Assembly (NCBI GenBank): GCA_035285865.1 | Contig: JAYKHS010000003.1 | Coordinates: 64,001 to 128,000, forward strand | Direction: 5' to 3' | Source of the DNA: Candidatus Sericytochromatia bacterium | Lineage (GTDB): Bacteria > Cyanobacteriota > Sericytochromatia > S15B-MN24 > VGJW01 | Length of the DNA: 64,000 nucleotides | Part shown: in pieces, positions 47,213 through 62,686 of the stretch | How the letters are laid out: each line of letters opens with the position of its first letter | How positions within the stretch are numbered: position 1 is the stretch's first letter | The notes under the pieces: generated by a model | The model's database searches: none | What the model was told of the DNA's origin: nothing | What the model saw: only the letters and a program-made list of their open reading frames with translations | Program-made: the position numbers and the translations under genes

Positions 47213-50026
47213 ATGCCCGATCAACAGGACACCACGGACACACGCCTCGCCCCGCTGCGCGAGGACATCCGGTTTCTGGGCGACTGCCTCGGGACCATCC
47301 TGACGGAGCAGGGCGGCGCCGGACTTTTCGCAATCGAGGAAGAGCTGCGCCGGGGCTTCAAGGCCCTGCGGGCCGATCCGGAGGATAGGGCGCTGGGAGC
47401 CCGCCTCGAACGCACCATCGCGGACCTTGATACGGAGACGGCTGCCGGCGTGCTGCGAGCGTTTACCCTCTACTTCCAGTTGGTCAACCTCGCCGAGCAG
47501 CACCAGCGCATCCGCCGCCTGAACGCCCGGGAGGACCGCCCCGGCGAGGAACCCGCCCCGGGATCCCTCGCGGCCGTCGTGGCCCGATTCGCGGCGCGTG
47601 GCGTCCCGGCCTCGGCCATCCGGGACCTGCTGGAGCAGCTCGAGATCGAACCGGTGCTGACGGCGCATCCGACGGAGGCCCTGCGCCGCACGGTCCTGGA
47701 GCACGTCGGGCATCTCGCCGACCTGCTCGAACGACGCGAGGCCCACCCGCCAGGCTCGCCGGCACGAAGACGCGCGGAAGCCGACATCGCGGCCATCATC
47801 GAGGGGCTCTGGCAGACTGACGAAGTGCACCAGCGGGCGCCGACCGTCCAGGACGAAGTCCGCAACGGCCTGTTCCATGTCGAGGGCGTGCTTTTCGATG
47901 CCGTGCCGGAACTGCTCCAGGGCCTCGAGGACATCCTTGCCCGACATTACCCCGGGGAGGCATTCCCCGTGCCCGCATTCCTGCGCATGGGCACCTGGAT
48001 CGGCGGGGATCGGGACGGCAACCCCAATGTCACGCCGGAAGCCACGTGGCAGGCCCTGCTTGCCGGCCACAGAGGCATGCTCCAGCGGCACATGGCTGCG
48101 GCTGATGCGCTGTCGGCCGACCTGAGCCAGTCGACGAACTGGATCCGGATCCCGGAAGACCTGCAGGAGGCTCTGGCCGCGGACGCCCGCATGTGGCCGG
48201 AGCGCGCCGCCGAGGCGCACGACCGCAATCCGCTCGAGCCATACCGCCAACGACTCGCCATCATCCGTCATCGATTGCAGGCGATGCGCGCGGCATGGTG
48301 CGATTCGTGGCAGGATGCCGAACGCATGCCGGCTTCTCGAGCAGGATACGATTCCGCAGCTGACCTGCTGCAAGAGCTCGATGTCCTGGACAGGAGCCTG
48401 CGCAGCCATCGCAGCACCCGAGTCGCGGACGGACCGTTGCGGACATGGCGTCGTCAAGTGGCTTCCTTCGGCTTCCACGGGGCCCGGATGGACCTGAGAC
48501 AGCATGCCGGCAACCACCAGCGGGCCCTCGATACGGTCCTCGGACGCCTCGGCCTTGACGTGCGTGCGTGGGATGCCGGTGCACGCGAAGCTTGGCTGGA
48601 AGGCGAGTTGACCAACCGACGTCCGCTCGTGGCACGCGACCTCGCACCCTACGATGCGTCGACGCGGGAAACGCTCGATACCTTCCGGATGGTCGCCGCG
48701 GCCAGGCGGGTCTTCGGTCCCGAGGCGCTCGGATCGTTCGTGCTCAGCATGACCACGAGCCCCGCGGATGTCCTGACGGCCCTGCTGCTGTTACGGGAGG
48801 GCGGCGTGCTGCAGTGGGCCGAGGACGGCGCCTGCGTGTCGACCATGCCCGTCGTCCCGCTCTTCGAGACCATCGCCGATCTGGCGGAGGCGCCGGGCAT
48901 CATGCGCCGATTGTTCGCCATGCCGGCCTACCGCGCCCATCTGCGCGCACTGGGTGACGTTCAGGAAGTGATGCTGGGCTACAGCGACTCGAACAAGGAC
49001 GGCGGCATCATGACCTCTTCGTGGGCACTCTACCGCGCCCAGCAGGAGCTGCTGGAGGTCGCGGGCGAAGCCGGCATCCGCCTGAAACTCTTTCACGGCA
49101 GGGGGGGGTCGGTCGGCCGCGGTGGTGGTCCCTCGCACCTCGCCATCCTCGCCCAGCCTCCCGGCACGGTGGGCGGGCGCCTGAAACTCACCGAGCAGGG
49201 TGAGGTCATCGGCCACAAGTACGGCCGGGGCCCCCTCGCGAGACGCAGCCTGGAACTGGTGACTTCGGCCGTGCTCGAGAGCAGCCTGCTGCCGGCGGAG
49301 GAGGCGTCCGAGAACCCGGAGTGGCCGCGCATCGCTGCAGACCTCTCGGAGCGCGCACACATCGCCTATCGGACCCTTGTCCACGACCATCCGGCCTTCG
49401 CGGATTTCCTTGGCCGGGCGACGCCGCTCGACCTGCTTGGCGGTCTCAGGCTGGGGTCCCGTCCGGCCCGGCGCCAGGCCGGCAGCGACATCGGAGCACT
49501 TCGGGCCATCCCCTGGGTCTTCGCATGGACCCAGAACAGGATGATCCTGCCGGGCTGGCTGGGTCTGGGCACGGCGCTATCGGGCTGGAGAAAGGCCCAG
49601 GGTCCGGATGCCACCGAACGCCTGCGCCAGATGGCCCGCGATTTCCCCTTCTTCCGGACGCTGCTTTCGAACGTCGAGATGACGCTGGCCAAGGCAGACA
49701 TGGCCATTGCCTCGCGGTATGTGGCGGGACTTGTCGGATCGGTTCCAGACCTCGTCGTCCTCTGGCAGGGCATCGAGGCCGAGTACCGCCTGACGGTCGT
49801 GGAAGTCCTGCTGGTCCTCGACCAGACCGAACTGCTGGAGCAGGCACCGACCCTGCGTCGGTCAATCGCGGCGCGCAACCCTTATGTCGACCCCCTGAAT
49901 CACCTGCAGATCGCCCTGCTGGCAAGATGGCGTGCCTGCGGCGAGGCGACGCCCCCGCCGGCCCTGCTGGACGCCCTGAAGCTCAGCGTGAGCGGCATCG
50001 CGGCGGGTTTGCGCAACACGGGCTAA
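47213..50026 (+). CDS. ppc: Phosphoenolpyruvate carboxylase
   Basis: VLTAHPTE, WIGGDRDGNP, VPLFET, VMLGYSDSNKDGG, FHGRGGSVGRGG, LRAIPWVF and C-terminal RNTG. Confidence 0.98.
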   Translation: MPDQQDTTDTRLAPLREDIRFLGDCLGTILTEQGGAGLFAIEEELRRGFKALRADPEDRALGARLERTIADLDTETAAGVLRAFTLYFQLVNLAEQHQRIRRLNAREDRPGEEPAPGSLAAVVARFAARGVPASAIRDLLEQLEIEPVLTAHPTEALRRTVLEHVGHLADLLERREAHPPGSPARRRAEADIAAIIEGLWQTDEVHQRAPTVQDEVRNGLFHVEGVLFDAVPELLQGLEDILARHYPGEAFPVPAFLRMGTWIGGDRDGNPNVTPEATWQALLAGHRGMLQRHMAAADALSADLSQSTNWIRIPEDLQEALAADARMWPERAAEAHDRNPLEPYRQRLAIIRHRLQAMRAAWCDSWQDAERMPASRAGYDSAADLLQELDVLDRSLRSHRSTRVADGPLRTWRRQVASFGFHGARMDLRQHAGNHQRALDTVLGRLGLDVRAWDAGAREAWLEGELTNRRPLVARDLAPYDASTRETLDTFRMVAAARRVFGPEALGSFVLSMTTSPADVLTALLLLREGGVLQWAEDGACVSTMPVVPLFETIADLAEAPGIMRRLFAMPAYRAHLRALGDVQEVMLGYSDSNKDGGIMTSSWALYRAQQELLEVAGEAGIRLKLFHGRGGSVGRGGGPSHLAILAQPPGTVGGRLKLTEQGEVIGHKYGRGPLARRSLELVTSAVLESSLLPAEEASENPEWPRIAADLSERAHIAYRTLVHDHPAFADFLGRATPLDLLGGLRLGSRPARRQAGSDIGALRAIPWVFAWTQNRMILPGWLGLGTALSGWRKAQGPDATERLRQMARDFPFFRTLLSNVEMTLAKADMAIASRYVAGLVGSVPDLVVLWQGIEAEYRLTVVEVLLVLDQTELLEQAPTLRRSIAARNPYVDPLNHLQIALLARWRACGEATPPPALLDALKLSVSGIAAGLRNTG

Positions 50027-50120: not shown

Positions 50121-50675
50121 ATGATCGCTTTTGCCCCGTCCCTGCGGCACCATCCCGTCCGCAACGTCCGCAGCACCCTGCCAGCCGATGCTGCGACCAC
50201 CCCGGCGCGGCCGCAGCATCGGCCGCAAGCCCGGCAACGAGTGCAGGCTGCCCCACCCTCGGCCCGGCGTCTCGCGGATTTCGAGGATCTGGCCCAGATG
50301 CTGGTTTCCGGAGTTGGTGGCCCGCTCCTTGCCGGGACCGGTGCGCTGGTGGGCTTCTTCCTCGGCGGGCCGGCGCTTGCCCTGACGCTCGCCATGGCGG
50401 GTGGCGCCCTGCCCGCCGTGCTCTTCGGGGGCTACGACGTCGTGGTCGGGACCGGGGACATCCTGGCGGGACGCGAAGGCGGCAAGCGGCAACTGTTGTT
50501 CGGCCTCGGCTTGCTTGCCGCAGGGCCCGGAGTCGTCTGGGCGGGTGCAGCAGTGGGGGGCCTGGCGGGAACCGTCACGGCGGCCACGCTTGGCGCGATG
50601 TTGGCCCCGGGATTGCTGCTGGCAGGCATCTGGCTTGCTGCGGAGATCGGGCGACGCCGCCATCGGCAGGAATGA
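50121..50675 (+). CDS. Gly/Ala-rich hypothetical membrane protein
   Basis: Four hydrophobic Gly-rich segments; true start uncertain. Confidence 0.55.
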   Translation: MIAFAPSLRHHPVRNVRSTLPADAATTPARPQHRPQARQRVQAAPPSARRLADFEDLAQMLVSGVGGPLLAGTGALVGFFLGGPALALTLAMAGGALPAVLFGGYDVVVGTGDILAGREGGKRQLLFGLGLLAAGPGVVWAGAAVGGLAGTVTAATLGAMLAPGLLLAGIWLAAEIGRRRHRQE

Positions 50676-50729
50676 GAGACGGAGTGGTACCCTTCTAAGG
50701 CCCACCCGAATCGCGAACGGCACCGATCC

Positions 50730-52001
50730 ATGGCCCACCTGCTCGATCCTGGCCTGATTGCAGGCCTGCTCACCCTGATCGTCCTCGAGATCGTCCTCGG
50801 GATCGACAATCTCGTCTTCGTCGCGATCCTCTCCGACAAGCTCGAGCCCTCCCAACGGGACAAGGCACGCGGGATCGGCCTCTCGCTCGCGTTGGTCATG
50901 CGCCTCGGTCTGCTGGCGTGCATCTCCTGGATCGTGGGCTTGAAGGAGCCCCTGTTCCGGATTGCGGCCTTCGCACCCTCGGGCCGGGACCTCATCCTGC
51001 TGGCAGGCGGCCTGTTCCTGACTTTCAAGGCCACGATGGAGCTGCACGAACGCCTCGAGGGCGCTTCGCACGGTCCGGGCAAGGCGACGCAGCACGCGCC
51101 GTTCTGGAGGGTGGTGGCCCAGATCGTGCTGCTGGACCTCGTGTTCTCCATCGACTCCGTCATCACGGCAGTCGGGATGGTGGACAGCCTCGGAATCATG
51201 ATCACGGCCGTGCTGGTGTCGATGGGCGTGATGATGCTGGCCGCCAAGCCGCTGTCACGCTTCGTGAACGAGCACCCTACCGTCGTCGTGCTCTGTCTGT
51301 CCTTCCTCCTGATGATCGGTTTCAGCCTGATTGCCGAGGCCTTCCACGTCCACGTGCCCAAGGGTTACCTGTATGCGGCCATCGGTTTCTCGGTCCTCAT
51401 CGAGACCTTCAATCAGGTGCGCCATCGCAATGCCGCAAGGGCGGAAGCCACCCGGCCTTTCCGGCTGCACACCACGGAGCGCGTGCTGCGCCTGCTCGGG
51501 GATCTGCCCCCGCAGGCCATCGACGAAGCGGGTTTCGCGGAACCCGAGCGCCAGCTGGTCTCAGGGGTCCTGGCCCTGGCTGAACGTCCCGTTGCCACGT
51601 GGGCCACGCCCCGATCCGCGATCGTCTGGCTCGACGCGACCCGCCCCGAGGCCGAGCTCCGCGACAGCCTGCTGCGCGCCCCCCATGGCCTGATGCCGGT
51701 CGGCGAGGGCAGCCTCGACAAACCCATCGGCATCGTGCGCGCCAAGGAAGCCCTGGCAGAATTGGCTGCCGGAAGGTCCTTGGCCGAACTGGCCCGAAGC
51801 ATGCCGATCCTGTCGGCGCCGGCAACGACCCGGCCGTTCGATCTGCTCGACCTCCTGCGTCGTTCGGATGACAACCTCGTGTTGCTGCTCGACGCGCAGG
51901 GACAGGTCGCGGGCCTCGTGACCCCGGTGGACATGCTGGCGGCCATCGCCGGCCAGCCGAACGAGGCCGCAGGCTTGCCGGGCACCGCCCTGCCTGCCTG
52001 A
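50730..52001 (+). CDS. TerC-family membrane protein with CBS domains (YegH/YoaE-like)
   Basis: [26 protein letters not shown] and PKGYLY; CBS pair in the C-terminal half. Confidence 0.93.
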
Positions 52002-52035
52002 CCCCGCCGCCCGGGTATAGGCCAGACAGGCCACC

Positions 52036-53907
52036 ATGTCCGAGTCCAACGCTCCGCCCCCCGGTGCGACAGCCCCGCTGCCGCCGTGGTTCCAGGCCCT
52101 GAGCGACCACTACAGGGCCAAGGCCGCCCACCAGTTCCTGCTGCACTTCAACATCCAGGACCACGTGTTGGTCGAGGGTCGCATCACGACTGTCCGGGAC
52201 CTGCTGGTGCAACGCCTTGCGGATCGCTTCCTGATCGTCACCTACAGCCTGTCCCGCGGCATCGGCTTTCCCGCGACGGGGCAGGCTCAGGCCGAGAGCC
52301 TCGGGCGTGAGCCCGGCCTTGGGCGTCTGCTGGGCTTTCGCGAGTCAGCCGAGGGCAACGTGCCGGTGGACCCCACGCGAGACGACCGGGACTTCCATCG
52401 GCTCCAGGGGCAAGGACGGATCAGCCCGTTGCAGCCTCCGGACGAGGCTCTGCCAGCCATCGAAAGGGCCTTGCGCCAAGGGGGCAGGCGTCTGTGCGTG
52501 CTGCTGGAGCACGTGGACAAACTGGCGCCTGCAGATGCCCGCGGTCGCGACCAGTGGATCGCCGTGGAAACACTGCAACGCTGGGCCCTCGACGGAGAGC
52601 TTGCCGAGCATGGCCATCTCGTCGTCATGCTGGCCGCGGAGCATGGCCAGGTGGCCGCTGCCGTGCAGGGGGCCAACAGCGGCACGGTGTCCCTGCAAAT
52701 CCCGCTGCCCGATGCGGCAGCACGCCGGATCTATCTCGACCATGTGCTCGCGGATTCCCATTTCGCCCGCCTGGCGTGGCAACCGGACTTCACGCCCGCG
52801 GACCTGGCCGGGCACACCGTGGGTTTCTCCCTGCGCGACATCCTGAACACCTTGAGGTTGGCGGCCGCGACGGGCAGGGCGATCGGCCAGGACCTGGTCG
52901 CCGAGCGCAAGCGGGACATCATCCGTCTGGAGAGCCACGGGCTGCTGCAGATCGTCGAAACACGTCATGGGCTCGACGCCATCGGCGGGCTGGAACACGT
53001 CAAGGCCTATCTGGGCGAAAAGATCGGCAACATCCGGAGCTACCTCGACCTGAACGCCCGGCACGAGCACACGGACGCCTCTCGCGACGCCCTCGCGCGA
53101 GCGCTGGCCTTGGTGCCCCGGGGCATCCTGCTCGCCGGTCCTCCCGGGACGGGCAAGACCATCCTCGCGGAAGCCTTGGCCCACGGCACCCAGCTGAACA
53201 TGGTCAAGCTGCAGGACATCCGCAGCATGTGGGTGGGCGAGAGCGAGCGGAATCTGACGAAGGTTCTGGATCTCCTCGTGGCCCTCGCCCCGGTGCTGGT
53301 GTTCGTCGACGAAATCGACCAGGCCCTTGGCAGCCGTGGAGGGCCTACGGCGGGCGCCGGGGGGGATACCGACAAACGGATCTTCGGCAAGCTGCTGGAG
53401 TTCATGGGAGACAACCGGCACCGCGGCCGTGTACTGTGGGTCGCGGCCACGAACCGGCCCGACTTTCTCGATGCCGCGATGCTCCGACGGTTCGATCGCG
53501 TCGTCCCGATCCTCGCCCCCGACCGGGAGGAACGGACGGCGGTGCTCGCCACCCTTGCCGGCCGTATCGGAACCCGGTACGGCACCGACGTGGACCTGGG
53601 CGCCATCGCGGAACGAACCGCAGGCCTGACGGGTGCCGGCCTAGAGGTCATCGTGCGGCGGGCCGCGGAGCTCGCTACCGACAACGTCATCACCCAGCAC
53701 GGGCTCATCACGGCATTGGCAGACCACAAACCCAACCACGACCCCGCTGTCTACGTGGAGCAGGCCATGCGCGCCCTCGTCGCGGCCAACTTCTTCTCGA
53801 TGCTACCCAGACATCTGCCGCCCGATCTCGCGGAGTTGGTCGAGGCCTGCCGGCAGGAGCGCAGCAACGCCCCGCTCGAACGGGCCTTGGCCCGCCTGAT
53901 GCCTTGA
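52036..53907 (+). CDS. Classical-clade AAA+ ATPase (Cdc48/Vps4/Ycf46-like) with a degenerate N-terminal AAA-like module
   Basis: GPPGTGKT, pore loop MWVGESE, VFVDEID and ATNRPDFLDAAMLRRFDR; the N-terminal module lacks a Walker A. Confidence 0.92.
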   Translation: MSESNAPPPGATAPLPPWFQALSDHYRAKAAHQFLLHFNIQDHVLVEGRITTVRDLLVQRLADRFLIVTYSLSRGIGFPATGQAQAESLGREPGLGRLLGFRESAEGNVPVDPTRDDRDFHRLQGQGRISPLQPPDEALPAIERALRQGGRRLCVLLEHVDKLAPADARGRDQWIAVETLQRWALDGELAEHGHLVVMLAAEHGQVAAAVQGANSGTVSLQIPLPDAAARRIYLDHVLADSHFARLAWQPDFTPADLAGHTVGFSLRDILNTLRLAAATGRAIGQDLVAERKRDIIRLESHGLLQIVETRHGLDAIGGLEHVKAYLGEKIGNIRSYLDLNARHEHTDASRDALARALALVPRGILLAGPPGTGKTILAEALAHGTQLNMVKLQDIRSMWVGESERNLTKVLDLLVALAPVLVFVDEIDQALGSRGGPTAGAGGDTDKRIFGKLLEFMGDNRHRGRVLWVAATNRPDFLDAAMLRRFDRVVPILAPDREERTAVLATLAGRIGTRYGTDVDLGAIAERTAGLTGAGLEVIVRRAAELATDNVITQHGLITALADHKPNHDPAVYVEQAMRALVAANFFSMLPRHLPPDLAELVEACRQERSNAPLERALARLMP

Positions 53908-56072
53908 GGATCGTGCAGCTGGCCCTCTGGGTGGGGGCAATCTGCATCGTCGGGTGGTACGTCGCTGCCGAATGTGCCGAATGGCTGGCCCTCTCCTCGG
54001 AACGGGCACGGGCCGCGCTTCAGGGCAGCCTCCTGGGGGCTGCGCTTGGTGGAGGTCTCGTGGTGCTCGAGGTCTTGCTGCTGGACCCGAGCCTCTTCCG
54101 GACACCTGCACGCTGGGGTGGAGAGGCCCTGCGCGGGGCTGTCGTCGGACTGGTCTTCGGGACGGTCGGATTGCTGGCGGCGGCGGCCGCCTATGCGGGG
54201 CTGGGGCATGCCCCATGGGCCAGAGGCCTCTCGTGGGGGGTGCTGGGTCTCGCCACGGGCCTGACCGAAGGCTTCAAGGCGGCTTCGGCACGGCGGGCCA
54301 GGGCAGCCGGGGTCGGTGCCGGTGTCGGCGGCCTGCTGGGCGGTTGGGTGGTCGAACAGGGCCCCGAGTGGGCCGGGCCGTTGTCGGCCAGCCCGGAAGG
54401 CGCCGTCCTGGTGATGACGATGGGCCTTGCCGCATTGGGAGTCTGCCTAGGGGCCGGCATGGGCCTGGCGCAGGTTCTCACCCGCCGGGCCCGGCTGATC
54501 GTCCTGACCTCCCCGCTCGGAAAGCAGCTGGGCCTCGCCTTCGACATCGGCAGTGTCGCGGCCATCGAGACGATAGGCAGCCTGAAGGCCACGTGGACGC
54601 TCACGGGCGACCCCGGCGTGCTGTCCAGGCATCTGTCCCTGGAGCGCCGGGGGGGAAGCCTTCTGGTGCGTCCGCTTGGCCAAGCACAGGTCGACCGTTC
54701 GGATCGCCCCATGCGGCCGGATGAACTCGGTCAGCTGGCGGATGTGGCGTTCCATCGATTGTCCCCTGAAGCGGCCGTCCACCTGCGGGACGGCGAGATC
54801 CTGCGCATCGGCGAGGGAACCCACCTGCACGTCAGTCTGGAACGTCTGCAGCGGACGAACGATGGCCCCCGTTCGCGGATTCCCGCTTTGGTGCTGATGA
54901 TTGCGGCAGCGTGGGCCATCATCCCTGCCGCGACCTCCGAGGCCCGAACGAATGGCAAGCCGGAGCTGGCCATCCGACTCCAGGATGCCCGCATCCTGCC
55001 GGCGCGAGACACCACGGGCCAGTGGCGCGCACGGGCGAACGTCCTCGTCTTGCGCGGGGATGACCCGGTCGAGGGACTCGGTGCCGAAGCCTTCAAGGCC
55101 TCGCTCGACGGCAAGGCCATCCCGATCGCCGCTGCCGGCACGGGGCATGAGTCGCGTCAACCCATCTGCGTGGCTCTCGTCCTTGACCGATCCGGGAGCA
55201 TGCTGGCGAAGGCGCGTCCCCACGGCCCGGCCAGCCGCATGCAAGTGGTGCGGGAAGCAGCCTTGGCTTTCGTCAGACTCCTGGATCCGCGAGACCAGGT
55301 CATGATCGTTTCCTTCGACCGGAACGTGGACGTCCAGGCCCCGACCAGCGATCGGGATCGCCTCGAGCGCGCCATAGCCCAGATCGAACCGGACCGCTGG
55401 GGTGCCGGGACCACGAACCTGCGCGGCGCCGTCGAACGGGCCCTGAACGAGCTGGCCCGGCACCGCGGCCCGGATGCCGGACTCAGGCTGGCCCTCGTCG
55501 CCCTGACGGATGGCGCGCACAACGTGCCCGGCGCACCTTCGCCGGATAGTCTTGTCCGCTCGGCCCGCTCCATCGGCTGCCCGATCCACGCCATCGCCTA
55601 CGGACGCACGGACGCCCCGCGGGGCAGTCGGGACTGGGTCGACGTGCCCGGATTGAAGCAACTCGCCGGGGAGGGGGGCGGCATCTTCCAGATGGCTCCG
55701 GACGTGGCCGCGCTGAATGACGCCTGGGGGCGCATCCTGCGTGCCATCCGCGGCAGCTACGGCCTCGAGCTTGCCCTGGGGCGACGCGTCCCCGACCCCT
55801 ACACCCACGTCCTGGAGGTGCGGCTCGCCGGCACCACCGCTCGCGCAAGCGGCCACGTCAGCGGCGGCATGGTCCCCTCACTTCCGGGAACAGCAGGCAT
55901 GCGCCTCGCCATCTGGCTGCCGATGGCCCTGCTGCTCGCGCTGGGCGGTCTTGCCGTGCCACCGGGGTGGCGTCGCCTGGAACGCCTGCTTGCCCCCACG
56001 GAGCACCCGCCGCCCATCCGGAGCGAGGCCTTGGCCCTCTGGGAAGCCCACAAGAAAAGGGGCGCGTCATGA
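53904..56072 (+). CDS. Multi-TM protein with FHA-like domain, vWA (MIDAS) domain and C-terminal TM
   Basis: TTG start overlapping the AAA stop; about six Gly-rich TMs; TIGS...GDPGVLSRHL...LRDGEILRIG (FHA-like); LVLDRSGSM, GTTNL and LTDG (vWA). Confidence 0.85.
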   Translation: MRIVQLALWVGAICIVGWYVAAECAEWLALSSERARAALQGSLLGAALGGGLVVLEVLLLDPSLFRTPARWGGEALRGAVVGLVFGTVGLLAAAAAYAGLGHAPWARGLSWGVLGLATGLTEGFKAASARRARAAGVGAGVGGLLGGWVVEQGPEWAGPLSASPEGAVLVMTMGLAALGVCLGAGMGLAQVLTRRARLIVLTSPLGKQLGLAFDIGSVAAIETIGSLKATWTLTGDPGVLSRHLSLERRGGSLLVRPLGQAQVDRSDRPMRPDELGQLADVAFHRLSPEAAVHLRDGEILRIGEGTHLHVSLERLQRTNDGPRSRIPALVLMIAAAWAIIPAATSEARTNGKPELAIRLQDARILPARDTTGQWRARANVLVLRGDDPVEGLGAEAFKASLDGKAIPIAAAGTGHESRQPICVALVLDRSGSMLAKARPHGPASRMQVVREAALAFVRLLDPRDQVMIVSFDRNVDVQAPTSDRDRLERAIAQIEPDRWGAGTTNLRGAVERALNELARHRGPDAGLRLALVALTDGAHNVPGAPSPDSLVRSARSIGCPIHAIAYGRTDAPRGSRDWVDVPGLKQLAGEGGGIFQMAPDVAALNDAWGRILRAIRGSYGLELALGRRVPDPYTHVLEVRLAGTTARASGHVSGGMVPSLPGTAGMRLAIWLPMALLLALGGLAVPPGWRRLERLLAPTEHPPPIRSEALALWEAHKKRGAS

Positions 56073-57226
56073 GTCGCATGGCACGCCTCGAGCAGATCCC
56101 GTGGTGGAACAGCGCGATGTTGGCAGAAGCCACCGTCCTGCTGGCCGGGGTCGGTGCCGTGGGCAACGAGGTGCTCAAGAATCTGGCCCTGATGGGCGTG
56201 GGGCGCGTGGTTCTGGTCGACAGGGACAAGGTCGCGCTGCATAACCTCTCGCGCAGTGTCCTCTTCCGACCGGAACACGTCGGCATGGCCAAGGCGAAGG
56301 CCGCTGCGGAGTCGGCGCTCGGACTGGCCCCCGAGGCCGTCTTCGTGCCCCTCGAGATGGACGTGGCAAAGGTTTCGCCAGCCCTGGCCGCATGGGTGGA
56401 CGTCGCGATCGGGGCCTTGGACAGCCTTGCGGCACAGGTGCGGCTTGGCCGACTGTGTCGGGTTGCCGGCATCCCTTGGGTCCAGGGGGGACTCGGCGAC
56501 GCCACGGACCTTTTCAAGGCCACGCTGGCCACGCATCCGGGCGAGGAGGGGCCTTGCCTCGAATGCCGGCTTCCCGAGGGCCTGGGAGACCGCCTGCTGG
56601 CCGAGGACCTGCCCCGCGGAGGGTGTGCCGAGGCCGGTCGAGAAGCCGAGGCAGCCGGTGGCGTCCCCTCGACGCCGATGACCGCCTCCATTCTGGGCGG
56701 GCTGCTGGCGCTCGAGGCCCTAGCCGTCCTTCACGCGCGCCGTGGTCTTCCCGGTCCGGACAGCCCCCCGGCGTGGGGCACCCACGCCCATTGGAATCTC
56801 CGCGTGCCCTCGGTCCACGCTCTTCGGGGCACGACGGTCCGACCCGAATGCCCGTGGCACGAACCCGTGCGCGTCCACAGGCTGGACCGCCAGATGGCCA
56901 ACCTGCCGATTGCCCACCTCTGGGACGTGCTTGGGCCATCAGGCATGGCCGGCCTCGAGGGTCACCTCGTCCGACACGCGGCCTGCCCAGGATGCAGGGC
57001 CAGCGCCGACTGGCGCTGGTGCCCCGACCTCCCTGCCCCGTGCCCTCACTGCGGTACCCCGGACCCGGCGGCCGAAAGTCTGCGTCATCTGCCGCGTGCA
57101 CACGCCCAATGCGCCCGTACGCCGCGCGCACTGGGAATCCCGCCGGGCATCGGCCTCCGCTGGTTCGATGGGGACGAGGCATGGACCGTGACGTGGCCCG
57201 GCGTCCTCGGGGACCTCAGCCCGTGA
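56069..57226 (+). CDS. E1-like ThiF/MoeB/UBA activating enzyme with C-terminal Zn ribbon
   Basis: GVGAVGNEVLKNL, VDRD, NLSR, KAKAA, ALDS, PCLEC, candidate catalytic Cys in GGCA, CPWH and CPGC...CPHC. Confidence 0.92.
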   Translation: MSRMARLEQIPWWNSAMLAEATVLLAGVGAVGNEVLKNLALMGVGRVVLVDRDKVALHNLSRSVLFRPEHVGMAKAKAAAESALGLAPEAVFVPLEMDVAKVSPALAAWVDVAIGALDSLAAQVRLGRLCRVAGIPWVQGGLGDATDLFKATLATHPGEEGPCLECRLPEGLGDRLLAEDLPRGGCAEAGREAEAAGGVPSTPMTASILGGLLALEALAVLHARRGLPGPDSPPAWGTHAHWNLRVPSVHALRGTTVRPECPWHEPVRVHRLDRQMANLPIAHLWDVLGPSGMAGLEGHLVRHAACPGCRASADWRWCPDLPAPCPHCGTPDPAAESLRHLPRAHAQCARTPRALGIPPGIGLRWFDGDEAWTVTWPGVLGDLSP

Positions 57227-57858
57227 GCCCCTTGGCACGGACCATCCTGGCGAGCCTCGTGCCCGTTGCCGCCACGCTGGCTGCCATCCGCAGCCTGCCC
57301 GGCGTCCTCGTGTTGGCGCCGGCCGGCACCATGCTGTCCGTGCTGGCCGCGGCCATCGCCTGGCGGACGAGGCGGCCGAATATCGCTGCCTGGGCCACGG
57401 GCAAGGCCGCCGGGTTCCTCGCTGGCATCGGTCTGCTTGCCTCAGGTGCCGTGGTGCTGGCGACCCGAGGCGATTGGCGGCAGGGTGCCCTCGCAACCCT
57501 GGCCTGGGCGGCAGGCCTCGCCGCGGCGACGTGGCGGGGAGCCGTGGTCCGCGAAACACCCGGAAGACACTTGTTCCGCCTGATCCGGGAAAAGCGCCGC
57601 AGCCCGACTGGTTCGTGTCCGGTGCCGAATTGCCCGGAGCCGCCACTGTCCTGCGACAGGAACGGCTGTGCCCGCGTGCTGTGCGGCACGCACTGGATCA
57701 TGGCCGAGGCCAGATGCGCCGAGTGCGGGCACGACGGCCTTCTGGCCCGACCGAACGCGGGCCGCCGTCACCCCGCTTGGACGGCAGCCCCACTAATTCT
57801 GGCACTGGCCGGAGGCATCGCACTGTTGATGACGTCGTCGCTGCTCCGGGGAACATGA
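57223..57858 (+). CDS. Multi-TM protein with RING-like binuclear Zn finger (candidate E3 ligase)
   Basis: GTG start overlapping the E1 stop; four TMs, then CPVPNC-x6-CDRNGC-x4-CGTHW-x6-CAEC, then a C-terminal TM. Confidence 0.7.
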   Translation: MSPLARTILASLVPVAATLAAIRSLPGVLVLAPAGTMLSVLAAAIAWRTRRPNIAAWATGKAAGFLAGIGLLASGAVVLATRGDWRQGALATLAWAAGLAAATWRGAVVRETPGRHLFRLIREKRRSPTGSCPVPNCPEPPLSCDRNGCARVLCGTHWIMAEARCAECGHDGLLARPNAGRRHPAWTAAPLILALAGGIALLMTSSLLRGT

Positions 57859-57864
57859 AACGAC

Positions 57865-58137
57865 ATGCCGCAGTACGTGATCGAGATTCTGGACCAGGAC
57901 CTGAAGGACAGGGCCCGTGGTGCCAAGGCCTATGACGTCGCGACGGGCACCACGGTTGCCGCCCTGAAGGCGGCGCTCGTCGACCAGTGGGGCCTGCCCC
58001 GCCGGGACATGCGGGGAGAGGTCCGACCCTACATGATGGCGTGGAACGGCGAGTTGCTGGACGATGGCGACGTGCTCGACGTCCGGATTCCGGACGGGGC
58101 GACGCTCGCGATGGCCAGTCCGGGGACCGTGGCGTGA
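57865..58137 (+). CDS. Ubiquitin-like beta-grasp protein (YukD/EsaB-like)
   Basis: 90 aa; TTVAALKAAL helix and NGELLDDGDVL...IPDGATLAM match the ubiquitin GxxLxDxxxL...IxxGxTL pattern; ends SPGTVA. Confidence 0.8.
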   Translation: MPQYVIEILDQDLKDRARGAKAYDVATGTTVAALKAALVDQWGLPRRDMRGEVRPYMMAWNGELLDDGDVLDVRIPDGATLAMASPGTVA

Positions 58138-58766
58138 CGGCGTGGCTGGCCGAGCACCTGACGCGCCAGTGGGATGGCCTGCAAGCCCTGATCACGCGGC
58201 TCGGGGCGGCATCGCTGATCGAAGCCGAACCGACCGCCTGGCTGGACCCCGTGGGCCGCAAGGCACCCGTGCGCATCGACCTCGCCTTGCGAACGGTCGC
58301 CATCGTGGACATGGAGGTACGCGGTCGGTCTCTGGTCCGGGAGTTCGGCGGGGACGCCGAAGGCTTCGTTCGCGTCACGGATCCGGCCCCACTGGACTGG
58401 GAGCCGGTTTTCGCCGAACCGCTCGAGAACAGCTCCCACGGCCCTATCCGGGTCCGCCTCTTCCTTCCGGATGACCTGAACCGGCCCGCAAGCCCCGAGG
58501 TGTATTTCCTCGACCGGGTCTGGCATCCGAACATCCGATGGGACAACGGACTTGCCTGCTACGGTGACAAGCAGGCCTGGGCCCAGCCGGACCGATCGCT
58601 GGCCGATCTGGTCCGACGCCTGTTCCTGATGACGGCCTTTGCAGACGCCGGTGCGGTGAACATGGACGAGGCGCATGCCCTGAACAAGCAGGCCCTGCGC
58701 TGGTACCGCGACACGCTGGCGGAGATGCCCGAACTCTTCCCGCTGTCCCGCAGGATTCCCGCTTGA
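58134..58766 (+). CDS. E2/UBC ubiquitin-conjugating-like enzyme
   Basis: GTG start overlapping the Ubl stop; IRVRLFLP...PEVYFLDRVWHPNIRWDNGLAC (Cys codon at 58557), W...SLADLV and ALNKQA. Confidence 0.88.
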   Translation: MTAWLAEHLTRQWDGLQALITRLGAASLIEAEPTAWLDPVGRKAPVRIDLALRTVAIVDMEVRGRSLVREFGGDAEGFVRVTDPAPLDWEPVFAEPLENSSHGPIRVRLFLPDDLNRPASPEVYFLDRVWHPNIRWDNGLACYGDKQAWAQPDRSLADLVRRLFLMTAFADAGAVNMDEAHALNKQALRWYRDTLAEMPELFPLSRRIPA

Positions 58767-59413
58767 AGGCAGCACGCTGCTGGCCCGGTCTGCCTGACGG
58801 GGCCCCGCGGGTGCTGGTCGAGGAGGCGTTCCTCGAACGGTTGGCGCGCTTCGGAGAGCGCTCGGCAATGGCCGGCCGGGAGGCCGGAGCCTTTATCCTG
58901 GGCAAGGCCGAAAAGCTTCGTGATGGCTGGCAGATCGCCCTTGAAGAACTGCAGGAGATCGAAGGAGAGGCCGACGCCGAGTCCTTCACCTTTCCTGCCG
59001 AGGCGTTCCTGAAGGCCCACCAGAGATGGCGAACCTGGTCCGTGGACGAGATCGCGGCCCGTCCCGGCACGACGTGCGTCGTCGGCTGGTGCCACACCCA
59101 TCCCGGACACGGCGTGTTCCTGTCGCCGCCGGATCTCGAGGTGCAGCATCGCAAGTTTCCCTTGCCCTTCCAGATTGCTCTGGTGGTCGATCCCCTTGCC
59201 GAATCAGCCGACCGGCGGATGGGCCTGGTGGCGTGGGTGAGAGAGGGCACGCTCTCGCCCCACCTGCCGGACGGCATCGCGTACTTCCCCACCGCCGCTC
59301 CCAGGCAAGCCGATCAGAAACGGCCCTTTGCGGTCGCCGGACAGCACTGGAACTGGGGCATCCTGCCCCTGCTGGCGGCCGCAGGCTGGTGGCTCTGGCA
59401 CCATGGCTTCTGA
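58763..59413 (+). CDS. JAB/MPN+ (JAMM) metallo-isopeptidase with C-terminal TM anchor
   Basis: TTG start overlapping the E2 stop; REAGAFILG, VVGWCHTHPGHGVFLSPPD and ALVVDP; ends WGILPLLAAAGWWLWHHGF. Confidence 0.92.
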   Translation: MKAARCWPGLPDGAPRVLVEEAFLERLARFGERSAMAGREAGAFILGKAEKLRDGWQIALEELQEIEGEADAESFTFPAEAFLKAHQRWRTWSVDEIAARPGTTCVVGWCHTHPGHGVFLSPPDLEVQHRKFPLPFQIALVVDPLAESADRRMGLVAWVREGTLSPHLPDGIAYFPTAAPRQADQKRPFAVAGQHWNWGILPLLAAAGWWLWHHGF

Positions 59414-59428
59414 CTCGGAGGCAGAAAC

Positions 59429-59734
59429 GTGAACGGCGAGCCAGAAGGGCCCATCATCCGCTCCATACGGGACCTGGCCTCAGGGAAGTGGGTCAAGCCC
59501 CCGAGTCCCGAAGGCCCGGTGCCCGGACCTGCATCGGCAGCGACCGGACGCCCGGACCTCGAGGAACGCTTGCTGCACGCGGAGCGTCTGGTCGCCGATT
59601 ATCAAGAGGCGCTTGTCTCGGCTCATGAACAAGTGCGTGCCCTGCAGGACCAGGTCGCCCTCCTCGAGGATCGGATCCGTACCTTGAATCTCGAACAGGG
59701 CATCCGGCCCGGTGGCGAACGGGAGGCCCTGTGA
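59429..59734 (+). CDS. Small coiled-coil protein
   Basis: GGAGG RBS then GTG; heptad-rich LEERLLHAERLVADYQEAL...LQDQVALLEDRI. Confidence 0.7.
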   Translation: MNGEPEGPIIRSIRDLASGKWVKPPSPEGPVPGPASAATGRPDLEERLLHAERLVADYQEALVSAHEQVRALQDQVALLEDRIRTLNLEQGIRPGGEREAL

Positions 59735-60654
59735 GCGCGGAAGGCGATCTCGTCATCAATGCCCTGGTCGTTCCGGTCGGCGTGACAGGGCTTGCCGTCG
59801 GCACGGCCGCCCTCAAGGGCGGGGCATTGCTGGCTGCGACGGCCTGTGATGCAGCAGCGATCGCGGGACACGGTCTTTGGCAGGCTACCGACACAGCCGG
59901 TCGGCTCGGGGCCTGGGCCGTTCGAACGGGGGCCGAATGGGTCCAGAGCATGCAGGATGCGTGGCAAGCCGAGGTGGCGCGCCAGGAGAAGGCCCACGAA
60001 GCTCGATTCGCAGACCGGGATGCCCTTCGCACGCAGGCGATCCGGACCATGGCGCATCTGGCCCAGATCGAGCGTGCCAGGCAAGTTGCTGGATCTACGG
60101 GCGTCGCGGCCGATGCCGAACTGGCGGCGTGGGCCACGGCCGGTCGCCACTGCCTGGGCCTGCTGGAGCAGAACACGACCGCCGCCCTTCCGGCCGTCTC
60201 GCAGTGGCTCGAACAGATGGAGCAGGTTCGTCGTGAAGGCCTGCGCACCCTGGAGAGCATCCAGCAGACCCATGTCGGTGATCTGCTTGTCGAAGCCCTC
60301 GAGGCCTCGGGCTACACCGTCGTGCGAGACGAGCCCTTCGGCACGGACAGACGACTCTCGGCGATGCGCCCAGAGCCGCCTCGGAGGGTGGTCTGGCGCT
60401 TGTCGCCCGGTGGACGGCTCGCCTTCGACGTGACGGATGGCTACGCCGGACAGGACTGCCACGATCTGCTTGCCGACGTACTCGACCACATGCGGCGGCG
60501 CGGCGTGCGCTTCACGCTCGGCCCCGAACTGGATGCGGTCGACCGCATCCTCAGAAGGGTCGGAACGGCCTTCGAGGCCTCGGGGGGGCGATTCCGCACA
60601 GAGCACCTGGGTGTAGGTCCCGATCACGAAGAGCCCGGACGACAGCGGGAGTAA
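59731..60654 (+). CDS. Hypothetical protein: hydrophobic N-terminus, coiled coil and DUF2997-like C-terminal motif
   Basis: GTGA overlap with the upstream gene; Gly/Ala-rich N-terminus; helical middle; EALEASGYTV and FDVTDGYAGQDCHD. Confidence 0.65.
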   Translation: MSAEGDLVINALVVPVGVTGLAVGTAALKGGALLAATACDAAAIAGHGLWQATDTAGRLGAWAVRTGAEWVQSMQDAWQAEVARQEKAHEARFADRDALRTQAIRTMAHLAQIERARQVAGSTGVAADAELAAWATAGRHCLGLLEQNTTAALPAVSQWLEQMEQVRREGLRTLESIQQTHVGDLLVEALEASGYTVVRDEPFGTDRRLSAMRPEPPRRVVWRLSPGGRLAFDVTDGYAGQDCHDLLADVLDHMRRRGVRFTLGPELDAVDRILRRVGTAFEASGGRFRTEHLGVGPDHEEPGRQRE

Positions 60655-60751
60655 CGGCCGACCCCACCGAAAGTCTTTCCGAAAGCCACGCTTCGCTTCA
60701 TCATGCCAAGCACCCCGCTACGTTCCTGCACAACCCTGGAGGAGTGCCGAC

Positions 60752-61591
60752 ATGAGCCAGCGCCAAGCGTCAGGTCCGGTCTTCCTCCGGGACAGGGGCG
60801 ACCGGGTGCTGGCCGTGGTCCTGCTGGCCATCGTGGGTCTGTTTGTCCTGCTGGTGATATGGGGCATCCCCCAGGTCGGTCATCAGGTCACGAAGTGGGT
60901 GCCACCGGCGTGGGAACGAAAGCTGGGCGACTCGGCCCTGAAGTCCGTCGTGGTCGGCAAAGCCGAAACCGGTGGGGTCCGGGTCGGGATGGTGGAGGCG
61001 ATCGTCAAACGCCTCACACCCGATGAAGCGACCTGGTCATTCCGTGTCACGCTTGCCCCGGGTGACACCCGAGTCAATGCGATGGCCCTGCCAGGCGGAG
61101 CCATCGTCGTCACCCAGGGACTGCTCGAGCGATGCTCCACTCCGGAGGAATTGGCCGGAGTCCTCGCACACGAGATCGTCCACGTCCAGCGCCGTCACGG
61201 CCTGCAACGGATGGGGCAAGAACTGGGCATCCAGTTGCTGCTGCTCGTGCTGACCGGCGGCGATCCCTCGGACCTTTGGTCTGGTGCCGCAGGTCTCGCC
61301 GGCCTGCACCACAGCCGACAGGCCGAGGACGAGGCCGACAAGGAAGGGCTGGCTCTGATGCTTAAGGCCCGTATCGATCCACAAGGCATGGTGCGGTCGT
61401 TCCGGATGCTCCAGAAGCTTTCGGCGGAGTCTGAAGCCACCGCTTTGCCTGCATTCCTGAGCGATCATCCGGCCGTCGCCGACCGGCTCGCCCGCATCGA
61501 GGCCGAGGCCGCCCGGCATGCCGGTCCGTGGGAACCGATCACCCTGGATCGGCCTTGGCTCAACGTCAGGTTCCCGGCAAGCCGCCGCTGA
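60752..61591 (+). CDS. M48 family Zn metallopeptidase, membrane anchored
   Basis: N-terminal TM; NAMALPGG, ELAGVLAHEIVH, SRQAEDEAD and FLSDHP. Confidence 0.93.
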   Translation: MSQRQASGPVFLRDRGDRVLAVVLLAIVGLFVLLVIWGIPQVGHQVTKWVPPAWERKLGDSALKSVVVGKAETGGVRVGMVEAIVKRLTPDEATWSFRVTLAPGDTRVNAMALPGGAIVVTQGLLERCSTPEELAGVLAHEIVHVQRRHGLQRMGQELGIQLLLLVLTGGDPSDLWSGAAGLAGLHHSRQAEDEADKEGLALMLKARIDPQGMVRSFRMLQKLSAESEATALPAFLSDHPAVADRLARIEAEAARHAGPWEPITLDRPWLNVRFPASRR

Positions 61592-61597
61592 GGACCT

Positions 61598-62686
61598 TCA
61601 GTGCAGGCGAGGACGCCCCCGGGGGGCTTCGCCGCGACTGCGGGACGCGAAGGCCAACTGGCTTTCCCCGAGCAGCACCGCTGCGTGCGCCCCGGTGATC
61701 CGCCCCTCGTTCAGAGCACGAAGGATGGCGCCCTCGAAGGCGCTTGGCGGCGGCCCCTCGCGCAGTGGTTCCCGCTCCATCCATCCGCGGGCATGCATGT
61801 CGGCCGCCAGTTCGGAGGCGTGCTGGGCCTCGAGCAGGCCCAGTTCGCGAAGACGGTCCAACCATCCGCCCATGGACAGACCGTGGGCCGCCTTGAGGAG
61901 CAGCAGCTCGCGGAGGTCCATGCGCGTCACACCGCGTCCGGGCTCGCGCTCGGCCACCAGGCGCGGCACCAGCAGGGCGCGGGCGAAACGGCGAATCCAG
62001 CGCGGCTCCTGGTCTGCCTGGCCGGCCAGATGCCAGCCGAGGACCTCGGCCGCCCCCTCCTGATCGAACGCCGGGTCCGACTCCGTGGGCAGGACGGCAA
62101 CGGGCCAGGCTCCGACGTGTACGGGGCGTCGCCCAAGCGGAGCGACCATCGCAACAGGAGCGTGCACGACGACCCACCCCCGGCGCTCCATCTCGGCACC
62201 CAGATGTCGCCAGGGCTGCAGGCCCTGCCCCCAAAGAACCCTGAGGCGATCGGCCCGCTGTTCGGCTTCCTCGGCTGAGCGAATCGGGCCGAGCAGGCCG
62301 GCATCGAGGTGCGCCGGCTCCTCATGCCATGTCCCGAGTGTCCGAACACCCTCCGCGCGGTCGACGCCATCGAGTATCCGGGTGGTCAACCGCGCCGCCG
62401 TCCGTCCTGCCAGCACCACCCCGACGGGCCAGACCGGAGCCCTCAGCGCTTCGTGCGTAGGGCGGCCCAGGTCTTCGGGTGTCACGCCCATCTCGCGCGC
62501 CAAGGCGAGAAGCGTGCGCCCCGAAGGCTGCGCACGGCCGTGCTCGTACTGCAGGAGCGACGTGTGGCTCAGACCGATGCGGCCAGCCAGCTCACGCAAG
62601 GTCAGCCCCGCCCTGACCCGTACCTTGCGGAGGTGTCGCCCCTGCCGCAGAAGTGTGTCCTCGCCCCAAGCCATGGCCATGCCCAT
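61598..62686 (-). CDS. XRE HTH regulator fused to a degenerate ImmA/IrrE-like peptidase domain
   Basis: LRKVRVRAGLTLRELA...YEHGRAQP; AEQRADRLRVLWGQG; AAEVLGWHL at the HELGH position; RFARALLVP; GGAGG before ATG 62686. Confidence 0.78.
   Translation of the reverse strand: MGMAMAWGEDTLLRQGRHLRKVRVRAGLTLRELAGRIGLSHTSLLQYEHGRAQPSGRTLLALAREMGVTPEDLGRPTHEALRAPVWPVGVVLAGRTAARLTTRILDGVDRAEGVRTLGTWHEEPAHLDAGLLGPIRSAEEAEQRADRLRVLWGQGLQPWRHLGAEMERRGWVVVHAPVAMVAPLGRRPVHVGAWPVAVLPTESDPAFDQEGAAEVLGWHLAGQADQEPRWIRRFARALLVPRLVAEREPGRGVTRMDLRELLLLKAAHGLSMGGWLDRLRELGLLEAQHASELAADMHARGWMEREPLREGPPPSAFEGAILRALNEGRITGAHAAVLLGESQLAFASRSRGEAPRGRPRLH

Follow-up and report, generated by a model that had tools for sequence, protein, structure and literature searches.

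A predicted five-helix membrane protein with a two-zinc finger is a candidate RING-type ligase subunit of a ubiquitin-like conjugation operon in a Sericytochromatia bacterium

Bacterial systems in which an E1, an E2, a prokaryotic RING-type E3, a ubiquitin-like protein (Ubl) and a JAB peptidase are joined to a double AAA ATPase and a vWA protein have been described as predictions (Kaur et al. 2020, PMC7159879). Tri-ligase Ubl operons were predicted by Burroughs, Iyer and Aravind in 2011, as related in PMC7159879, PMC4197634 and PMC3417536, and related operons are cited from Actinobacteria, Planctomycetes and Acidobacteria (PMC4197634, PMC3417536); a zinc finger serving as an E3-like adaptor had been suggested earlier (PMC1779556), and the Bil, Bub and CBASS systems are covered by PMC11601596 and PMC11601603. 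The srfp protein of Caldiarchaeum subterraneum is an experimentally proven prokaryotic RING E3; in this archaeal system the PY motif in loop 4 of the E2 is essential, and I30, W58 and R69 of srfp matter (PMC5654768). Here we describe an operon with a comparable gene set in a 64,000-nucleotide stretch of DNA from Candidatus Sericytochromatia bacterium (contig JAYKHS010000003.1, positions 64,001 to 128,000; hereafter the window, whose own numbering is used throughout), and in particular the gene at 57223 to 57858, which encodes a putative zinc-finger protein of the membrane. In the literature searched, with subscription journals mostly outside it, we found no experimental study of a bacterial RING E3 together with the E1, E2 and Ubl of its own operon, and no description of the window operon in the main texts.

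It is proposed that the gene at 57223 to 57858 encodes a membrane-embedded RING-type ligase subunit, either an E3 or an adaptor recruiting the E2, of an E1/E2/RING/Ubl/JAB operon; judged from the sequence, the probability of this reading is roughly 0.55, and E3 activity of the protein is plausible to about the same degree. The gene, its metal ligands, the gene order and the cysteines of E1 and E2 are read from the sequence itself, and the topology and the fold are predictions. The features that bear on the proposal are:

57223..57858, + strand: five-transmembrane (five-TM) protein with a C5HC2 two-zinc finger, candidate RING-type E3 or E2 adaptor; 211 amino acids, GTG start
57244..57534, + strand: predicted TM segments TM1 to TM4 (residues about 8-21, 28-47, 60-79 and 88-104)
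57559..57594, + strand: basic helix ahead of the finger (residues 113-124)
57616..57726, + strand: eight-ligand finger, C132 to C168 (W158 and R164 in 8/8 sequences)
57778..57837, + strand: predicted TM5 (residues about 186-205)
56069..57226, + strand: E1 (ThiF, E 1.2e-34) with C-terminal CxxC pairs
57865..58137, + strand: Ubl of 90 amino acids, with a weak ThiS match and, in a homologue, a weak YukD match
58134..58766, + strand: E2 with an invariant HPN motif and Cys142; profile matches to eukaryotic Pex4 and UBE2D
58763..59413, + strand: JAB/MPN peptidase (Prok-JAB, E 9.4e-07) with a hydrophobic C-terminal tail

The locus resembles the tri-ligase operons in that E1, HPN-type E2, Ubl, JAB and an eight-ligand finger share one operon and the window E1 is homologous over its full length to the E1s of other such loci. 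It differs from them in that the finger is C5HC2, whereas prokaryotic RINGs are C4HC3 (PMC11354881), that it belongs to a five-TM protein and goes undetected by the Prok-RING_1 and Prok-RING_2 models, and that the Ubl of this genus ends in Ala. With the FtsH ternary complex variant (PMC7159879) it shares a double AAA+ ATPase with an inactive N-terminal domain, a vWA protein, extra helical proteins and a complete Ubl set with a (here candidate) RING-type E3; however, no MoxR, EAD1, caspase or beta-propeller-vWA protein occurs among the 10 window genes from AAA to M48, the Ubl and the E2 are separate genes, and the vWA protein is multi-pass and carries FHA. The Ub/E1/E2/srfp/Rpn11 operon of C. 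subterraneum has the same enzyme set (PMC5654768), but srfp is a small RING-H2 protein with I30, W58 and R69, and in the window finger the Trp stands elsewhere and the Arg is absent. Bacterial E1/E2/JAB conjugation is likewise found in Bil, Bub and type II CBASS Cap2, although Bil encodes no E3 (PMC11601596). The first-pass annotation, a reading of the window sequence alone, had contrasted the gene with Bil and Cap2 only, which overstated its novelty, operons with a RING-type E3 having already been predicted (PMC7159879, PMC4197634). In the window operon the PADLOC models of BilC, BilD and E1-E2 give weak, partial matches only. Hrd1, gp78, MARCH and RNF13 are eukaryotic membrane RING ligases, and they too combine a TM bundle with a cytoplasmic RING-like finger; there is no sequence link between them and the window protein, and the likeness is one of analogy, not homology.

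Several lines of sequence evidence identify 57223 to 57858 as a real gene. Its GTG overlaps the E1 stop by 4 nt, and the starts of all six genome homologues overlap the stop of their E1 by 1-8 nt, so that a coupled start is seen in 7/7 with the window's own; a GGAGG-type site lies upstream of the start in three distant homologues. The upstream part of the longer open reading frame (ORF) 56392 to 57858 has a GC content by codon position of 0.79/0.78/0.60, against 0.77/0.55/0.80 in the E1 frame, and in 3/3 congeners this longer frame runs into stops 117, 107 and 48 codons upstream; by these signs it is a shadow frame over E1. The first-pass annotation had placed the gene inside this ORF with its start at GTG 57223, and start coupling, codon GC and the congener stops bear this out, as the operon order does for its location between E1 and Ubl. 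An alternative database gene call (P0003) begins at ATG 57181, 14 codons before the GTG, and is less parsimonious. The ratio of nonsynonymous to synonymous substitution rates (dN/dS) is 0.35-0.43 for the finger gene and 0.05-0.21 for AAA, E1, Ubl and E2; the finger gene is therefore under purifying selection, though it evolves fastest of the five tested. Contigs from two other runs cover 57000 to 58400 unbroken, with 11 and 14 differences and no gap, and none of the 40 differences listed (of 46) touches a ligand codon or the Ubl stop.

The finger follows the pattern C132-x4-C137-x6-C144-x4-C149-x4-C154-x2-H157-W158-x6-C165-x2-C168, relaxed across the homologues to C-x4-C-x6/7-C-x4-C-x4-C-x2-H-x7-C-x1/2-C. 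All eight Cys/His ligands and the Trp are invariant in 8/8 homologous sequences, the six aligned homologues being 25-49% identical to the query, and the eight-ligand pattern first noted by eye thus holds; its span, initially given as 57616 to 57732, is right at the start and ends at 57726 instead, the longer span taking in the non-conserved H170. Two residues past the first Cys stands a Val (V134) in 7/8 sequences, a position which we take to be equivalent to the loop-1 hydrophobic residue I30 of srfp. The strict pattern, which was defined post hoc, turns up once in the 5.65 million six-frame residues of the genome, and a loose pattern of eight ligands 88 times in the same translation; conservation, not rarity of the pattern, is the real test of the finger. 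Homologues are present in 7/61 relatives and in 7/47 genomes of the Sericytochromatia class, the own genome included, and fall in three genera. A search of 1.84 billion representatives with the finger profile returned six matches, five of them true and one of these new (P0008); the remaining one, P0009, was dropped as a repeat protein matching profile positions 10-34 only. An additional N-terminal ribbon, C-x2-C...C...H, is found in the four sequences that are not of this genus's type. Among the 8000 scored candidates of a single-sequence search of 5.8 billion proteins there was nothing but the finger protein itself; a separate search for longer forms had none among its 8000, a plasmid search found none, and 0/11 finger-pattern matches on viral contigs were confirmed. 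The protein has no Pfam, PADLOC or NCBIfam match, and when PDB sequences were searched with the finger, the sole matches were short CxxC stretches of zinc ribbons (E >= 0.08).

Hydropathy and the structural model agree on four hydrophobic helices before the finger and one after it, as the first reading of the sequence had supposed, TM4 being weak in the window copy (Kyte-Doolittle peak 1.15). Summed over seven homologues, 90 lysines and arginines lie in loop 2 and at both ends of the finger loop, and 15 in loops 1 and 3 and the C-terminus; by the positive-inside rule the finger would therefore be cytoplasmic, which supports, as a prediction, the side of the membrane originally assigned to it. 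The predicted five-TM topology is N-in, finger inside and C-out.

The operon runs AAA (52036), TM-FHA-vWA (53904), E1 (56069), finger gene (57223), Ubl (57865), E2 (58134), JAB (58763), coiled coil (59429) and a 307-amino-acid protein (59731), with intergenic gaps of -4 to +15 nt. The finger gene directly follows E1 in 7/7 genome loci (7/47 Sericytochromatia-class genomes), and the order from vWA on is kept in all loci as far as the contigs reach. Genomes G013 and G014 have a second JAB gene after the finger gene, and the AAA gene of G014 is found beyond the far end of the locus on the opposite strand; this genus has neither the second JAB gene nor the N-terminal zinc ribbon that occur in the other genera. 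No second E3 candidate was found in the operon, and on sequence grounds the finger gene is the sole candidate for the RING-like role.

The nucleotide-binding loop of E1 and its candidate catalytic Cys186 are conserved in 7/7; the protein is full-length homologous to 52 database proteins at E <= 1e-30, including GntR-fused E1s, two named as Chloroflexi, and in a quick tree with weak deep branches the seven finger-operon E1s form one long-branch clade with support 100, whose placement the tree does not fix. The E2 keeps HPN and Cys142 in 6/6, with an invariant loop-7 Pro, and has the loop-4 PF/PY motif in 2/6 (G013 and G014); this E2 subfamily is present in 6 of the 7 finger genomes (47 searched), the contig of the seventh (G026) ending in the gene after the finger. 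Ubl is the most conserved gene tested (dN/dS 0.05-0.10). Its C-terminus reads Pro-Gly-Thr-Val-Ala-stop in 4/4 genomes of this genus, and Ala-Gly plus a short tail in G013 and G014. A reading of the TGA at the Ubl end as Gly was set aside, as this stop overlaps the E2 start like those of the other coupled genes. In type II CBASS a C-terminal Ala is conjugated by Cap2 (PMC10449767), so that conjugation of the window Ubl through its C-terminal Ala is possible by analogy.

With regard to its family, the finger shows no detectable relation to Prok-RING_1 (PF14446): there is no Pfam match, local hidden Markov models (HMMs) give no full-finger match, and hhalign against an alignment of 14 Prok-RING_1-type domains gives 1.3%, where a control RING from a second operon of the same genome (see below) gives 93%. 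Prok-RING_2 (PF14445) is absent from the Pfam scans of the protein; a Prok-RING_2 search of 301 genomes gave 17 weak matches, none over the cut-off and the best a Cys-repeat protein, and no mention of PF14445 was found in the literature searched. Prok-RING_2 presumably ends with C-x4-C-x2-C-W-x6-C-x2-C, which has the C-terminal spacing of the finger and the Trp right after ligand 6; its bacterial members are noted in Pfam for TM helices and for association with Ub, E1 and E2. The finger differs in having His as its sixth ligand and four residues in its first and third gaps. In the ESM Atlas the cluster nearest to the G013 homologue is bacterial, of 237 amino acids, with 13% Prok-RING_2 members (score 0.81), and a 238-amino-acid Acidobacteriota cluster turns up by features and by structure (TM score 0.54 over 58 residues); Atlas scores are 0.78-0.81, and below 0.9 such matches are leads only. 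Our best guess is that the finger originated as a remote relative of Prok-RING_2.

The finger is modelled with pLDDT 86-88 in the full-length protein and 80 as an isolated domain. Foldseek found no match at E <= 0.001. Of the 48,161 chains compared by VIA-align, 48 match at Z >= 2 (best Z 3.4); the 47 listed comprise, as we class them from their titles, 30 RING/U-box, 6 PHD-type and 11 other folds. The weak fold matches include the RINGs of gp78 and RNF13; no B-box, AN1 or IBR domain is among the matches listed at Z >= 2, where scores are weak throughout, and the whole-protein model and the TM bundle match generic helical bundles only. The model thus favors a binuclear treble clef of RING/PHD type as the likely fold. 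Of the cross-brace RING first proposed, the treble clef is supported by the model, and RING is not told apart from PHD/PZP, the two being tied in the fold searches; within the wider set of folds named for comparison, Prok-RING_1 goes undetected and neither B-box nor AN1 is among the listed matches.

Other ubiquitin-like loci show how RING-like genes are placed elsewhere. A second operon in the same genome (contig C14, L014 13069-9816, minus strand) encodes a Prok-RING_1-like finger, an E1, a YukD-type Ubl, an E2 and a JAB. Its finger matches Prok-RING_1 at E 8e-4, under the cut-off, with the first two ligands replaced by Asp-containing residues; its C-terminal domain is OB-fold-like by eye, and its Ubl ends Ala-Gly-Ala. 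This operon is present in 8/8 genomes of the family, with an E1 homologous to that of the finger operon and the RING-like gene adjoining it. A match to the E2 is found in 16/401 genomes of the phylum, five of the 16 lying outside the Sericytochromatia class; among these five loci and one plasmid locus, all cyanobacterial, 3/6 have a RING-like domain followed by one TM, two are RING-like without a TM at the threshold used, and one is cut by the contig end. These counts indicate that operons of this class regularly include a RING-like gene, and that it is often membrane-anchored. On the cyanobacterial plasmid NC_019754.1 (L092 8989-16064), E1, E2 and JAB are accompanied by two Ubl-like genes, a coupling-protein-like gene and two degenerate RING-like genes with a TM. 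Another E1/E2 operon (L093 7149-10245 in G013, and L094 in G026) has its RING-like gene fused to HIRAN (E 5e-14), hinting at a DNA-linked target. The metagenomic locus L028 (6239-13002) combines a Prok-RING-type finger, E2, Ubl and JAB with genes resembling, by eye, a proteasomal ATPase and a Pup ligase, a coupling mentioned in PMC7159879. A protein of about 490 amino acids with an internal Prok-RING_1-like finger (L058 on the own contig C14, at about 24500; L053, L055-L057, L060 and L061) is conserved in the family, with no E1, E2, Ubl or JAB match within 1.5 kb. The E2-pattern loci L029 and L030 are terminase-like false positives, and L024 and L031 were discarded as relatives of the operon, their E2/Ubl genes belonging to other systems.

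A number of observations weigh against a RING-type ligase subunit. Canonical RINGs have an E2-contacting Trp later in the central helix and a linchpin Arg or Lys after the last Cys. In the finger a Gly follows the last Cys in 8/8, so there is no linchpin Arg; Pro stands between the seventh and eighth ligands in 2/8 only; and W158 comes directly after the sixth ligand, the same place as the Prok-RING_1 Trp. For these reasons the Trp, which the first-pass annotation had taken as a RING sign, fails as an argument. The canonical RING spacing C-x2-C-x9-39-C-x1-3-H-x2-3-C-x2-C-x4-48-C-x2-C is not matched by the finger either (PMC11354881). There is no sequence link to Prok-RING_1, and the Prok-RING_2 HMM matches no finger locus in five genomes at E up to 10. 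Only 2/5 isolated-domain models, from a seven-row alignment, exceed pLDDT 75; all Z scores are at most 3.4; and PHD/PZP matches (Z 2.6-3.1, root-mean-square deviation (rmsd) 2.7-2.9 over 58-59 residues) stand level with RING matches (Z 3.0-3.4, rmsd 3.1-3.3). RINGs being abundant in the PDB, the number of matching rows is no test. On the side of the partners, the terminal Gly is missing from the Ubl in 4/6 genomes, and the E2 loop-4 aromatic is Asn (LN or PN) in 4/6, all four of this genus and the window included.

Much of this would also fit a finger that is a non-catalytic treble-clef adaptor of PHD, B-box or AN1 type, binding the Ubl, the AAA ATPase or a peptide, in a protein that is a scaffold or a substrate, with the E2 conjugating without an E3. 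AN1 and B-box fingers typically have a C-x4-C-x2-H core, the fold searches place PHD/PZP level with RINGs, and canonical E2-contact residues are missing both on the finger and on the E2 of this genus; Bil operons, moreover, work without an E3 (PMC11601596). Yet neither B-box nor AN1 appears among the listed fold matches, all of them weak, the 0-3 lysines of the finger protein and its homologues make a poor substrate, and sister operons do use RING-like genes; we therefore hold the adaptor to be possible but unlikely. It is improbable that in this genus nothing is conjugated to targets and that a Gly-less Ubl, the E2 and the finger are non-covalent parts of a membrane complex. The Val-Ala end of the Ubl, the loss of the E2 loop-4 aromatic in the same four genomes and the missing second JAB and zinc ribbon would suit such a complex; the loop and Cys of E1 are nevertheless invariant, as are HPN and Cys in the E2, purifying selection on E1, E2 and Ubl is strong, and type II CBASS provides a case of conjugation through a C-terminal Ala (PMC10449767).

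An IBR/RING2-like finger with sequential zinc binding, in a RING-between-RING (RBR) type ligase that takes the Ubl on a cysteine, is less probable still. The spacing C-x4-C ... C-x4-C-x4-C-x2-H does resemble IBR and Parkin RING2, and the gap of 6-7 residues between ligands 2 and 3 is shorter than the RING consensus of 9-39 (PMC11354881), but Parkin IBR-RING2 and EMI1 rank 36 and 46 among the fold matches (rmsd 10.9 and 8.4), neither is among the Z >= 2 rows of the second look, and no ninth conserved Cys is available as a nucleophile. That a GC-rich shadow frame produced the Cys pattern by chance, as the 88 loose matches and the lack of any database family might suggest, is scarcely credible: it is contradicted by the invariant ligands, the purifying selection, the coupled start in 7/7 and a coding-like GC content at third codon positions.

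The remaining genes of the operon are:

52036..53907, + strand: AAA+ ATPase; its one intact P-loop is at residue 368, and the N-terminal half has none
53904..56072, + strand: multi-pass membrane protein; it matches FHA weakly (E 0.017), and two further TMs enclose a vWA domain (E 8.5e-15)
59429..59734, + strand: coiled-coil protein of 101 amino acids, SlyX-like just under the cut-off
59731..60654, + strand: protein of 307 amino acids without Pfam family, with a hydrophobic N-terminus, traveling with the operon

The AAA+ ATPase has its best NCBIfam scores to CDC48, PAN and FtsH, all under the cut-off, and its orthologue is found in the same 7/47 genomes as the finger gene. In the 53904 to 56072 protein a signal-like TM separates the FHA-like and vWA regions, which probably places the vWA domain outside the cytoplasm; two genes that other operons of this kind keep apart could be fused here. 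The 307-amino-acid protein occurs in the same seven genomes as the finger gene, plus one weak match; its C-terminal part has a conserved Gly-x2-Cys and no DUF2997/Ycf35 Pfam match, and we assume that it resembles the DUF2997/Ycf35-type partners of Ycf46-like AAA ATPases. The flanking genes encode an M48 peptidase (60752 to 61591) and a TerC-CBS protein (50730 to 52001). In this genus TerC flanks the operon in 4/4 and M48 in 3/3 where the contig reaches; in the G013 and G014 loci neither was observed, and both genes are therefore probably neighbors, not operon parts. Further upstream, the ORF at 47213 to 50026 is phosphoenolpyruvate carboxylase-like by eye, in a non-photosynthetic relative of cyanobacteria. 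A simple scan of the + strand of 50300 to 61800 found no promoter-like site, no proteasome subunit was found in the own genome (83% complete), and VipB (0/5 genomes) and sheath (0/5) give no link to type VI or contractile systems.

If the finger protein is a RING-type ligase subunit, we infer the E2 binding, the substrate and the role of the ATPase as follows. The E1 would activate the Ubl and hand it to Cys142 of the E2; in this genus the Ubl would be already mature with its Ala end, and in the other two genera JAB would trim it so that it ends in Gly. The finger would dock the loaded E2 at the inner membrane, probably through a non-canonical interface, and the fast-evolving TM bundle would pick a membrane-bound target, the simplest choice being the FHA-vWA or helical proteins of the operon itself. 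The tag would be removed by JAB, and the AAA ATPase may remodel or extract the tagged complex. A bolder version is doubtful: that a five-TM E3 outside Prok-RING_1 and Prok-RING_2 puts an Ala-ended Ubl on inner-membrane proteins through a non-canonical E2 interface and the double-AAA ATPase extracts them, in a quality-control or defense circuit resembling endoplasmic-reticulum-associated degradation (Hrd1 plus Cdc48), in a bacterium without a detected proteasome.

The operon class has already been predicted in print (PMC7159879), and the finger type is named by no current model. The finger family is tiny and its hosts are apparently known from metagenome assemblies only, both of which, like the predicted class, limit its interest. 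Even so, the window operon is a compact, testable candidate for a bacterial operon-encoded RING E3, the proven prokaryotic case being archaeal (PMC5654768), and the second operon with its soluble Prok-RING_1-like gene offers an internal comparison in the same genome. An Ala-ended beta-grasp tag would be unusual. If the finger is an E3, it would add to the kinds of zinc finger able to activate an E2 and would show that bacteria have membrane-embedded ligases.

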